Shown: one piece after another, positions 12,602 to 15,188 of the stretch
Numbering within the stretch: position 1 is the first letter of the stretch
How the letters are laid out: each line of letters begins with the position of its first letter
IMG/VR virus record: IMGVR_UViG_3300025658_000255
Span: 1-38,907 of that record
Source of the DNA: a virus
Lineage: Duplodnaviria; Caudoviricetes
Length of the DNA stretch: 38,907 nucleotides
Strand: one strand, 5' to 3'
Position numbers and translations under genes: made by a program
The notes under the pieces: generated by a model
Told to the model about the DNA's origin: nothing
The model's database searches: none
Seen by the model: only the letters and a program-made list of their open reading frames with translations

Positions 12602-13108
12602 ATGAAACGTTTATACATTGCACTCACTATGCTATTAGTCAGTGCCACTACTTTATCAGCAGAAACAAAAGTTAACTATTTGGCAGATATATTTCCAGAC
12701 GAGTATTGTCTAGCTCTTAATATATATTACGAGTCTAGAGGATCAAGTTTAGCTGACCAAATTGCTGTTGCTGATGTAGTAATCAACAGAGTAAATGATA
12801 CACGCTATCCTGACACAGTATGTGCTGTGGTCAAGCAGGGTAGAGTAGACAAACAAGGAAATATGATTAGACACAAATGCCAGTTTAGTTGGTATTGTGA
12901 TGGCAAGCCAGACACGCCACAAGATATGGATTCGTGGGTAAATGCCCAAACCATTGCTTGGAAGATGATGCAAAGTAAATCATATATTGGTATTACAGAA
13001 GGTGCAACACATTACCATGCACACTATGTTAATCCAAAATGGGCTAAAGAGCTTACAGTAGTAGGTACAATAGGTAATCATAAATTTTATAGATGGGACA
13101 GAAAATAA
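12602..13108 (+). CDS. Cell wall hydrolase, SleB/Hydrolase_2 family
   Basis: Signal peptide; CLALNIYYESRG; VADVVINRV; CQFSWYCDG; GATHYHA; IGNHKFY. Confidence 0.92.
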   Translation: MKRLYIALTMLLVSATTLSAETKVNYLADIFPDEYCLALNIYYESRGSSLADQIAVADVVINRVNDTRYPDTVCAVVKQGRVDKQGNMIRHKCQFSWYCDGKPDTPQDMDSWVNAQTIAWKMMQSKSYIGITEGATHYHAHYVNPKWAKELTVVGTIGNHKFYRWDRK

Positions 13109-13335
13109 TGCCAAATAACGATCACAAAGTATATGCAGATCAGAATGTCAAAGGCGAAGCAATCTGGAAAGTAAGGACAGGTGGCAGACGTGGAGATGTT
13201 GTTACAATCTGTCGTACGCCAGAAGCAGCACAAGATATTGCTGCTAAACTAAACAACGATCCGTGGTACTTAGATAGAGGCTATACAAGAGCTGATAGAA
13301 TCAAAGCATGGAACTTATCTAATCAAAAAGGTTGA
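13108..13335 (+). CDS. Hypothetical protein
   Basis: TAATG coupling at 13108 (MPNNDHKVY...). Confidence 0.6.
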   Translation: MPNNDHKVYADQNVKGEAIWKVRTGGRRGDVVTICRTPEAAQDIAAKLNNDPWYLDRGYTRADRIKAWNLSNQKG

Positions 13336-13362
13336 CAACATCACATAATGATGTTATAAATA
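13332..13362 (+). promoter_or_regulatory. Dual early/late promoter of tmRNA
   Basis: TTGACA 13332-13337, then 17 nt, then TATAAA, which is also a perfect late TATAAATA (13355-13362). Confidence 0.75.
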
Positions 13363-13366
13363 ATAT

Positions 13367-13771
13367 GTTGACGTTGAAGCAACGTAGACACATACTGGAC
13401 CGCGGGGCAGTACCGCGCAGCTCCACCATAAGGATACTAAATGTACTATGTAATGAATCTTGAAACTGGGAGTATCTGGGAAGATACCTTCGATAGTTTG
13501 TTAGAAGCAAGTGAACTTGTTAGCAAACATCCAGAGTGGACCATTATGGTAAAGTATAAAGACAGATAGTATTTTTGTGTTGGGGCTGAAATAGGATCGA
13601 CAGGTGTGAAAGTGAAGTGGAGTTAATCGTGCGCAAGCTACGTAACGCAAGAAAAATGATAATTGCAAATGACAATTTCAAACCTGAACTTTCTTTTGAC
13701 TTCGATGGAGTCTTAGAAGCAGCCTAAGGGCAGTTCGCGGTTACGGAGGCCCCGGGCAACAGAATGCCTCC
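13367..13771 (+). ncRNA. ssrA: Circularly permuted two-piece tmRNA (alphaproteobacterial type)
   Basis: The acceptor piece comes first: T-arm CGCGG-GGCAGTA-CCGCG and CAGCTCC-A-CCA ending at 13428. The coding piece starts GGGGCTGAAATAGGATCGAC at 13582, giving a G3.U acceptor pair. Tag frame 13665-13727 reads ANDNFKPELSFDFDGVLEAA*. Terminal helix GGAGGC...GGCAACAGAAT-GCCTCC spans 13745-13771. Ends are approximate. Confidence 0.93.
13441..13569 (+). CDS. 42-aa ORF within the tmRNA intervening segment
   Basis: AAGGA RBS at 13430-13434; MYYVMNLETGSIWEDTFDSLLEASELVSKHPEWTIMVKYKDR*; the ORF fills the whole loop. Confidence 0.65.
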   Translation: MYYVMNLETGSIWEDTFDSLLEASELVSKHPEWTIMVKYKDR

Positions 13772-13794
13772 AACACACAAACACAGGACTAGAA

Positions 13795-14007
13795 ATGTAC
13801 AATAAGAAGTTCGAACTTACAATACGAGATATTGAGATAATTGAACATGCACTTAGAGCAAAAGCTGGCCGAAGAGGTTTAAGCATTGCTCAAGGCGAAA
13901 CATCCGAACAACTCAAAAATGAGATGCACGAGATACAAGAACTACTAGGACGCATACACGATCAGAAGGTATGGTTTCGTCCTAAAGGATTTGTACCAGG
14001 CGGATGA
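13795..14007 (+). CDS. Hypothetical protein
   Basis: AGGA RBS; 70 aa. Confidence 0.7.
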   Translation: MYNKKFELTIRDIEIIEHALRAKAGRRGLSIAQGETSEQLKNEMHEIQELLGRIHDQKVWFRPKGFVPGG

Positions 14008-14219
14008 ACTGGATTGAGATAGATAAGTTTCTAAATGGTTTAATCCATGCTGCTAAATCAGAAGAGCAGCTATACAAAGATGCCATGAAGAAATTTAGCT
14101 GGAATCGCAAGCAAGCTGAAGATGCTATCAAACCACTACAAGGCCGTGCTAATTTAACGCACCCAGTAGATGTAAAAAAACCGCAAAAAAAAGTAAAAAA
14201 ATCTTCCAAAAAGTCTTGA
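14004..14219 (+). CDS. Hypothetical protein with a basic C-terminus
   Basis: ATGA overlap. Confidence 0.65.
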   Translation: MNWIEIDKFLNGLIHAAKSEEQLYKDAMKKFSWNRKQAEDAIKPLQGRANLTHPVDVKKPQKKVKKSSKKS

Positions 14220-14276
14220 CTCTTTAATCAACCGCACTACATAATAATAGTAACAACAACACACACGGAGAATTAA

Positions 14277-14636
14277 ATGAATTATAAACCTTCAGATATC
14301 TTTCTACCAGTTAGCGTTTTTAAACATGCTAAGGATGCGTGGAAAAGTGTAATGACAATTGAGAACTCACCTTTACGTAAATTAGATCCAATGGCTGGGC
14401 ATATGGTGTTCCAGTTACTTGCTTATATGTGGTGTGCAGTGTTTGCATTGTATATTGGTAGCATTTCCTACTTTGGTATAAGTGCTCTAGTACATACAAT
14501 AATCATTGGAGGTATCTTTATTACGTCAGCAGTAATGCGTGAAGCAGATAAGCGTCCAGAGCGCCTTAATAAATTAGCAGGTACAAGAACTGTTGACGGA
14601 TACAACGGACGTAGCAATGGTGGCGAGCATGATTGA
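14277..14636 (+). CDS. Membrane protein (2 TM)
   Basis: GGAG RBS; hydrophobic segments; TTGACT promoter-like site at 14216. Confidence 0.75.
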   Translation: MNYKPSDIFLPVSVFKHAKDAWKSVMTIENSPLRKLDPMAGHMVFQLLAYMWCAVFALYIGSISYFGISALVHTIIIGGIFITSAVMREADKRPERLNKLAGTRTVDGYNGRSNGGEHD

Positions 14637-14715
14637 TATTATTATTGTTCTTGTAATAGTCGGCGCAATCTTTTACGGTTTAGTAAGAGCACTTGAGAAG
14701 GATGCTAGAGACTAA
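14629..14715 (+). CDS. 28-aa single-TM microprotein
   Basis: MIDIIIVLVIVGAIFYGLVRALEKDARD*; TAATG coupling to the next ORF. Confidence 0.6.
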   Translation: MIDIIIVLVIVGAIFYGLVRALEKDARD

Positions 14716-14909
14716 TGAAAAAATATGCTATCTTAAATAGAAACACAGGTGATGTACAAGTAATGTCATTTAATAGTGAATTACACCTTAAGAAGTACAT
14801 GGTAGTGCTTGGCCCTAATTATGAAGCACTAGAAGAAACTAAGAATGAGTTGCCAACACGGCACGTAAGAATGAAAAACAAAGATGAGTTCGCAGGATGG
14901 GGATCATGA
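14715..14909 (+). CDS. Hypothetical protein
   Basis: 64 aa; coupled on both sides. Confidence 0.65.
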   Translation: MKKYAILNRNTGDVQVMSFNSELHLKKYMVVLGPNYEALEETKNELPTRHVRMKNKDEFAGWGS

Positions 14910-15022
14910 ACGAAACATACTATATTGTTGGAATGATGTTAGGTTTTTTAGCATTATTTCCAATTGCAGGACTAATTTATTTTAACGCACTTGTATCATA
15001 CATGGAGTCAGAAGATGAGTGA
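14906..15022 (+). CDS. 38-aa single-TM microprotein
   Basis: MNETYYIVGMMLGFLALFPIAGLIYFNALVSYMESEDE*; ATGA overlap. Confidence 0.6.
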   Translation: MNETYYIVGMMLGFLALFPIAGLIYFNALVSYMESEDE

Positions 15023-15188
15023 ACAAACAAACTATTGCACTACAAAAGGTTTAGGATTAGCTTTCTTAGTTATCGTTTTTATGATTGCTGTTGTACCAGT
15101 ATTAATGTTGATGGCAATGGTAGGACTTGAAGAATACGGTCGCTACTGCAATGTTAACATCTTACCTTGCTTTGGACTTAACAAATGA
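15015..15188 (+). CDS. Small TM protein with three Cys
   Basis: GGAG RBS before MSEQTNYC; TM helix. Confidence 0.65.
   Translation: MSEQTNYCTTKGLGLAFLVIVFMIAVVPVLMLMAMVGLEEYGRYCNVNILPCFGLNK

Follow-up and report, generated by a model that had tools for sequence, protein, structure and literature searches.

The spacer that separates the two pieces of a permuted phage tmRNA gene (ssrA) is likely a swappable cargo slot rather than a tmRNA-specific switch, as judged from the comparison of ssrA sequences. In the large marine phage studied here the slot is closed by a stem and holds a conserved 42-codon gene. The reading we favour is that such a passenger is probably translated briefly on the nascent precursor, after which the stem closes and the predicted maturation removes the segment. 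The slot is real and broader than the original prediction saw, but it is less specific to tmRNA.

The tmRNA gene and the helix closing its spacer

The window, i. e. the whole stretch of DNA that was analysed, is the virus record IMGVR_UViG_3300025658_000255 (38,907 nt; 12% complete according to CheckV). Its gene content includes NrdA, PAAR, an endolysin and an exonuclease. Another contig with the same peptide family carries a gp23-type capsid gene and measures 198 kb at 55% completeness, from which we infer that the window phage is a T4-like jumbo phage. Rfam gave no rRNA match in the window. Between 15866 and 17651 lie a plastocyanin/pseudoazurin-like gene (PHROG 515) and two ORFs labelled by eye as host-like membrane or porin-like, all of them probable auxiliary genes.

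ARAGORN places a permuted tmRNA at 13335-13818, and both permuted models of Rfam recognize it: alpha_tmRNA with 107.8 bits at a cut-off of 50 and tmRNA_permuted with 105.9 bits at a cut-off of 47. The acceptor piece precedes the coding piece, as in permuted two-piece tmRNAs (RF01849/RF04321). A 7-bp acceptor stem with G3-U70, the discriminator A, CCA and the T arm are all present, and the tag frame terminates in Ala-Ala (ANDNFKPELSFDFDGVLEAA*). The tag is acidic and, with 20 aa, long compared with the commonest length of 10 aa in PMC11915505. The original prediction of a permuted gene, with the CCA and the start of the coding piece where Table 1 has them, was confirmed by the sequence, by ARAGORN and by both Rfam models. 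Every coordinate of the 153-nt spacer, of its 42-codon ORF and of the AAGGA ribosome-binding site (RBS) was found to be correct as well.

Table 1. Features of the window around the ssrA gene (IVS, intervening segment; SD, Shine-Dalgarno sequence)
Feature	Position	Strand	Basis or remark
Predicted composite promoter	13332..13362	+	TTGACA, 17 nt, then TATAAATA; from sequence
tmRNA acceptor piece	13367..13428	+	ARAGORN, Rfam, sequence; predicted 5' end
5' hairpin	within 13367..13428	+	
T arm	13401-13417	+	
Acceptor 3' strand	13418-13424	+	pairs with 13582-13588
Discriminator A	13425	+	
CCA	13426-13428	+	
IVS (153 nt, cargo slot)	13429..13581	+	Rfam, folding, IVS parsing
Closing helix 5' arm	13427..13439	+	includes SD-like AAGGA 13430-13434
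42-codon cargo gene (42 aa)	13441..13569	+	predicted beta-beta-alpha-beta fold
Closing helix 3' arm	13567..13579	+	begins with TAG stop
tmRNA coding piece	13582..13774	+	starts G13582; sequence, ARAGORN, Rfam
Acceptor 5' strand	13582-13588	+	holds G3-U70 pair
Tag frame	13665-13727	+	
3' hairpin	about 13746-13771	+	

The predicted promoter upstream of ssrA combines a sigma70-type -35/-10 with an overlapping TATAAATA box, which we take to be of the T4-late type. Of 241 distinct regions upstream of viral ssrA, 108 have the composite motif and 141 have the box (both among the matches listed); neither is present in any of 116 bacterial ones. The promoter is absent from the output of the promoter scanner because this scanner demands T at -10 position 6. 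No terminator-like site was found in window positions 13000-14400. Beside another phage ssrA there is a manA RNA motif (L037:1142-1351).

The two ends of the IVS form a helix of 13 bp with three G-U pairs, which is the same in the MFE and the centroid structure; the window fold has a z-score of -5.1, and none of 200 shuffles was equally stable. As had been proposed, both the SD, which lies 6 nt upstream of the cargo ATG, and the stop codon are buried in it. The claim that the helix extends the acceptor stem also stood, with a refinement: the two are joined through the pair A13425-U13581, C13426 and U13580 are unpaired at the junction, and the AUG sits just outside the helix. Within the window family the stem covaries: 97.3% of the cells are paired, and twice both sides of an arm pair have changed, once with the compensatory replacement of the TAG stop by TAA (the shuffle control is inflated by kinship).

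The cargo gene and its relatives

Taken alone, the window ORF is only modestly unlikely, as 2.4% of 5000 shuffled versions of its IVS contain a spanning ATG ORF, and therefore relatives were needed. Twelve protein clusters match the peptide at 71-86% identity. Alignment-based scans for its gene gave 35 viral and 20 metagenome loci, with a few contigs in both collections; three metagenome loci (L197-L199) turned out to be unrelated long proteins and were dropped. Of the remaining 52 loci, 11 lie inside a tmRNA IVS and 41 outside ssrA as tightly packed small genes, many of them directly 3' of a homolog of the window gene 14277-14636. In the window this usual place of the free gene (14277-15188, after the 119-aa gene and before an MSEQT-type gene) is taken by other small ORFs, and the start of 14715-14909 loosely resembles the cargo-gene pattern.

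The seven distinct IVS alleles (22 loci with four acceptor-stem types) have all kept the frame, the SD and the stop, with a single indel, of 3 nt, among them. Pooled pairwise Nei-Gojobori estimates, which carry no confidence intervals and come from pairs that are not independent, gave a dN/dS of 0.11 for these alleles and of 0.17 for 20 free alleles. Judging by this pattern, the cargo ORF is under purifying, coding-type selection, which is what the original prediction had named as a check. The low ratio may in part have been acquired outside the slot, because free and IVS copies recombine and because the tree of the cargo gene, with four changes of the IVS label, does not separate one capture from several. 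The window allele itself is a mosaic: nt 1-49, including a 3-nt insertion, equal the free allele L145 and the remainder equals the IVS allele L148 save for 1 nt. The window copy thus arose, by its sequence, through recombination between a free and an IVS allele. Where a contig carries the free gene, its IVS is empty in two cases (29 nt in L154, 40 nt in L545) and filled with a different cargo in a third (L546). On this evidence the window gene is an ordinary selected small phage gene and not a dedicated tmRNA partner.

In sequencing run X1 the whole stretch was recovered as a contig identical to the window with flat depth; this run may be DNA or the source sample and gave no sign of transcription. 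Runs X2-X4 covered the flanks and left 13432-13553 uncovered, an absence of cover only, which is compatible with other cargo.

AlphaFold2 models the peptide as a compact beta-beta-alpha-beta fold (pLDDT 88). The modelled fold is similar to that of numerous small phage proteins that are uncharacterised, but to none significantly: Foldseek had no match at E up to 0.001 either in PDB, where a BRK domain was best (E 0.5), or in BFVD, where the closest were such phage proteins with a TM of up to 0.85. All matches in the ESM Atlas stayed below 0.9 (best 0.88), so that DUF7204 (0.86) and Arm-DNA-bind_4 (0.85) are leads only. Searches with the peptide found no match in PHROGs or in cultured phages, no Pfam family at E up to 0.5 and, among PDB sequences, nothing but one chance match (E 1.2). 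A likeness to NUMOD1/IENR1 had no support from Pfam. A profile search of 1.84 billion representatives yielded seven matches; five are clear family members or fragments and the other two, long repetitive proteins, were taken as spurious.

The slot across ssrA genes

To place the window spacer among others, 355 of 417 viral ssrA loci were parsed into 238 distinct IVSs with a median of 102 nt, and 117 of 120 bacterial loci into 115 distinct IVSs (both among the matches listed). Bacterial permuted tmRNAs of the alphaproteobacterial type (RF01849, RF04321) share the gene order, the acceptor stem, the T arm and the tag frame with the phage gene, and, according to PMC11915505, the absence of the IVS from the mature RNA; their sampled IVSs differ in being short (median 24 nt among the matches listed) and in having no fixed long closing helix. 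The viral scans were not alike: two demanded an AAGGA arm, one demanded the last four IVS bases and only one was fully blind. The two scans that were blind to the 5' arm make up an arm-blind set of 184 distinct IVSs (among the matches listed).

Among the 122 distinct viral IVSs of at least 100 nt, 102 contain a spanning sense ATG ORF, where shuffles lead one to expect 7.8 and the antisense strand has 14. The arm-blind scans gave 57 of 76 (shuffles 6.1, antisense 11) and the bacterial IVSs of this length 1 of 4; all three counts are among the matches listed. The ORF-bearing viral IVSs (104 of the 238 distinct ones, among the matches listed) form 34 BLAST clusters. We estimate that these represent about 30 families, because five clusters share a C-terminal YLG-type motif and a few singletons are possibly due to chance. 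Several of the IVS ORFs in L125, L060, L496, L448, L486 and L538 have an amphipathic N-terminus together with a C-terminal YLG/YLSG and likely belong to one superfamily. In 10 of the 11 clusters with at least three alleles dN/dS was 0.11-0.29, the exception (0.74) being a saturated heterogeneous cluster; clusters with two members gave 0.16, 0.41, 0.44 and 0.46, and two were undefined. Fourteen of the 34 clusters, three of them weakly, were found also as ordinary genes in the fetched loci, often less than 500 nt from ssrA. Relative to the predicted cut, most cargo stops are at -12, -1 or +13, which are three different frames.

Proteins are not the only cargo. The arm-blind set (among the matches listed) comprises 59 IVSs with an ORF, 33 short ones and 92 other inserts, several of which bear tRNA-like T arms by eye. 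IVSs of at least 48 nt without a spanning ORF amount to 100 distinct ones in 66 clusters (among the matches listed); several are conserved and are candidate new small RNAs (they include L011, L027, L035, L046, L050, L058, L080 and L120, with tRNA-like T arms in L490, L434 and L097). Inside the non-coding IVSs of 20 loci Rfam gave no match at the gathering threshold.

The closing stem is common to all these types. In 182 distinct arm pairs (among the matches listed) the first C of CCA always stays unpaired; the 12 positions that follow are 90-98% paired, with one exception at 54% and with several pair types per position. At least 10 of the 12 register pairs are formed in 58/59 ORF, 26/30 short and 90/92 other arm-blind IVSs (among the matches listed) versus 15/49 bacterial ones; the stem-length calls of fam13, fam19 and fam20 were off-register and left out. 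We rejected the idea that locking the RBS is what the stem is there for, since it is found in empty spacers too. SD-type arms are nevertheless enriched for ORF cargo (8/12 clusters versus 18/98, p = 0.001; among long IVSs 8/8 versus 18/33, p = 0.018). The closing stem appears from these patterns to be a processing-type feature that sometimes doubles as an RBS.

Cargo moves between ssrA alleles. The window's cargo also occurs in ssrA alleles whose coding pieces are 57-67% identical to that of the window, with IVSs that are 80-86% identical. L025 has a coding piece identical to that of the window and an IVS of 91% identity, and compared with L149 its IVS identity is 0.93 and its coding piece identity 0.59. 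More than one cargo type was seen in 14 of 32 clusters of coding pieces at least 97% identical, which is an upper bound because non-coding inserts were typed by length. L148 and L025, the closest relatives of the window, have a decayed acceptor end and IVS arms about 120-330 nt upstream of the CCA, and this relic encloses an intact cargo gene of another family.

Cassettes can also be stacked. L537 (G001:C1:18348-18831) has three head-to-tail IVS cassettes in one ssrA, joined by 14-nt linkers, each composed of one 5' and one 3' strand of acceptor-like type; cassettes 1 and 2 are seen as single units in L507 and L038. In L457 an ssrA-derived module without T arm or tag lies about 100-600 nt upstream of the intact acceptor piece and consists of a tRNA-like cassette and an ORF cassette between two terminator-plus-promoter repeats (PeSL-like, by eye). 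Cultured phages provide further cases. Sinorhizobium phage Phosso (PV764938) has an unannotated two-piece tmRNA (L122:1095-1510), whose 410-nt IVS contains two structured non-coding cassettes (fold z -7.2) and had no Rfam match at E up to 5. Phage Melnitz (MZ577097) has an SD-led 54-codon IVS ORF (L538:652-816), which is unannotated in GenBank and whose stop lies only within the coding piece; its gene 85, upstream, resembles the commonest cargo family by eye. In DSS3_MAL1, V10 and RcXuper (L121, L540, L541) extra IVS-type stem cassettes are present upstream of ssrA, outside the tmRNA gene, and one of those in L121 follows a GOLLD RNA.

Mao et al. in 2009 reportedly described rickettsial palindromic elements in permuted ssrA, and the IVS is said to tolerate insertion and swapping. 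Those elements are repeated and non-genic, whereas the window cargo is a selected protein gene in single copy (on a 12% complete contig). Our literature search found no description of protein ORFs in tmRNA spacers, although the content of the IVS may be treated in Keiler 2000, Sharkady 2004 and Mao 2009. The accessible parts of PMC11915505, PMC10085705, PMC9004378, PMC3978253, PMC6581868 and PMC4131195 mention no protein genes in a tmRNA IVS, and the supplement of PMC11915505, as far as accessible, mentions neither IVS nor intervening segments. What the accessible texts do mention is a tRNA-Ala gene in one IVS and a repetitive element in another, the absence of the IVS from mature two-piece tmRNA (PMC11915505), very few reads for the 129-nt IVS of Hodgkinia (PMC6581868) and Melnitz as a phage example of the two-piece gene (PMC9004378). 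Two-piece ssrA is common in marine phages.

The nearest analogue is the S23p-bearing IVS of Coxiella 23S rRNA, which, according to PMC4990558, is likewise stem-closed, removed at maturation, equipped with a protein ORF and horizontally moved. It differs in lying in 23S rRNA, in being excised by RNase III and in carrying one decaying family. The window slot has the paired ends, but it lies in ssrA, encodes no S23p and would presumably be cut by RNase P; it takes about 30 selected families plus non-coding cargo, and its peptide has no Pfam match. The PeSL cassettes of T4-type phages (PMC2839356) are similar in that short conserved elements cause small non-essential genes to be shuffled within hyperplastic regions. 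In phage ssrA, however, the two halves of a functional tRNA-like domain serve as conserved flanks, and the cargo sits inside RNA that processing is predicted to remove. Of the PeSL combination of strong sigma70 promoter and stem-loop terminator the window has the promoter motif and, at 13000-14400, no terminator-like site; both were seen, by eye, only in L457.

Expression of the cargo

Bacterial two-piece tmRNAs are matured by an RNase P cut and by trimming of the acceptor piece to CCA. In the phage, the strong early/late promoter would give rise to the precursor. Transcription has to proceed about 130 nt further before the 3' arm exists, and up to that point opening of the initiation region (-20 to +13) is computed to cost 6.7 kcal/mol. 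Ribosomes could then load, because this value falls within the range of 15 other window genes (1.5-14.8 kcal/mol). Pairing of the 3' arm would raise the cost to 21.9 kcal/mol in the full precursor, where the SD is computed to be fully paired, and thereby shut the RBS; the cost would be 13.1 kcal/mol after a cut at 13582 and 9.8 kcal/mol in the free IVS. These energies are equilibrium values, not kinetics. If the phage RNA follows the bacterial route, the helix would also offer a pre-tRNA-like substrate, so that RNase P would cut before G13582, the acceptor piece would be trimmed to CCA and the spacer would be destroyed. The stem would be retained for processing, and an arm that reads AAGGA would in addition provide a ready-made SD and, via complementarity, a TAG stop. 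Spacers move between ssrA alleles and swap sequence with free gene copies, as the sequences demonstrate, probably through recombination events located either inside the genes or in the flanking T-arm/acceptor and D-loop sequences, which are conserved.

The original prediction had seen in the locus a dual-output RNA, with processing and translation either coupled or mutually exclusive. As the RBS is computed to be open before and closed after synthesis of the 3' arm, exclusion on each single molecule is plausible; a tmRNA-specific switch, in contrast, does not agree with a stem that is equally paired in empty spacers. The series of opening energies therefore favours a brief co-transcriptional translation followed by closure and processing, which we regard as the probable course. 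The few reads on the Hodgkinia IVS and the apparent lack of S23p in vivo in Coxiella speak against it. Another possibility is that the IVS gives no useful expression of the gene, which would look selected owing to recent capture and recombination with free copies, like S23p in Coxiella, which is apparently not made in vivo (PMC4990558). The mosaic window allele, the ambiguous gene tree, the computed pairing of the SD in the full precursor, the decayed relics in L148/L025 and the 12 of 34 cargo clusters that reach no stop before the predicted cut would agree with such silence. Yet 22 loci, with seven alleles and four acceptor-stem types, retain frame, SD and stop; fam5, fam6 and fam8, without a match outside the IVS among the fetched loci, have a dN/dS of 0.11-0.15; only a single copy is found in the window and in each of four IVS-carrying contigs (3-12% complete); and SD-type arms are enriched with ORFs. 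A silent passenger is therefore rather unlikely in our view.

We are similarly doubtful, if anything slightly more so, about a regulatory coupling in which the cargo, by being translated, governs how the tmRNA matures. With a ribosome bound to the SD, CCA and the acceptor strand would be covered and RNase P delayed, so that tmRNA output would track ribosome availability; cargoes without a stop would, once the cut is made, turn into substrates of tmRNA. The geometry allows for this, as the -20 to +13 region overlaps the acceptor strand. The arm contains the SD in 15 of 34 clusters, SD and stop remain paired through the compensatory TAG to TAA change, and those 12 clusters stop only past the predicted cut. 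However, the SD is outside the arm or absent in 19 of 34 clusters, 125 of the 184 arm-blind IVSs (among the matches listed) have no spanning ORF, near-identical tmRNAs exist with and without cargo, and the homolog P0011 appears to run through the arm into the tmRNA. Selection on the cargo proteins at the amino acid level would also be needless for a pure ribosome sensor. An action of the peptide on trans-translation itself, for example on SmpB, the ribosome or Clp proteases, is highly improbable. It is suggested by the nesting in ssrA and by the five partial phage contigs, in which no SmpB gene was found, a situation that may oblige the phage tmRNA to compete for SmpB of the host. But the peptide has no sequence match in Pfam, PHROGs or PDB, and its modelled fold is like that of many uncharacterised small phage proteins, though none matches significantly. 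Moreover, 41 of 52 loci lie outside ssrA, the slot takes about 30 other, unrelated families interchangeably or no ORF at all, and the SD is in the arm in only 15 of 34 clusters. The special link between peptide and trans-translation that had been suggested was thus not borne out; the other option offered, a passenger that exploits a harmless, highly transcribed site, fits best.

Beyond brief translation on the nascent precursor, one may tentatively consider the tmRNA spacer of aquatic alphaproteobacteria-type phages a programmable expression platform, in which processing of a fixed helix would time and limit the translation of a small protein or release a folded small RNA, in a unit that is mobile and stacks in tandem. 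The mobile unit could then, equally tentatively, be the acceptor 3' strand, ACCA, the cargo, TGAT and the acceptor 5' strand, which persists in modules without T arm and tag (L537, L122, L457).

A segment that has been treated as disposable is thus a hypervariable gene-capture site, in which about 30 families of small proteins occur beside numerous non-coding inserts that are uncatalogued. Such cargo escapes annotation pipelines, for example in Melnitz. Cultured cases are at hand, Melnitz with an ORF cargo and Phosso, DSS3_MAL1, V10 and RcXuper with non-coding or extra cassettes, and the slot allows one to ask whether the precursor of a stable RNA can serve as a self-limiting mRNA and how ribosome loading stands against tRNA-like processing. 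Even if the cargo were silent, the slot would still be a new hotspot of phage gene shuffling.
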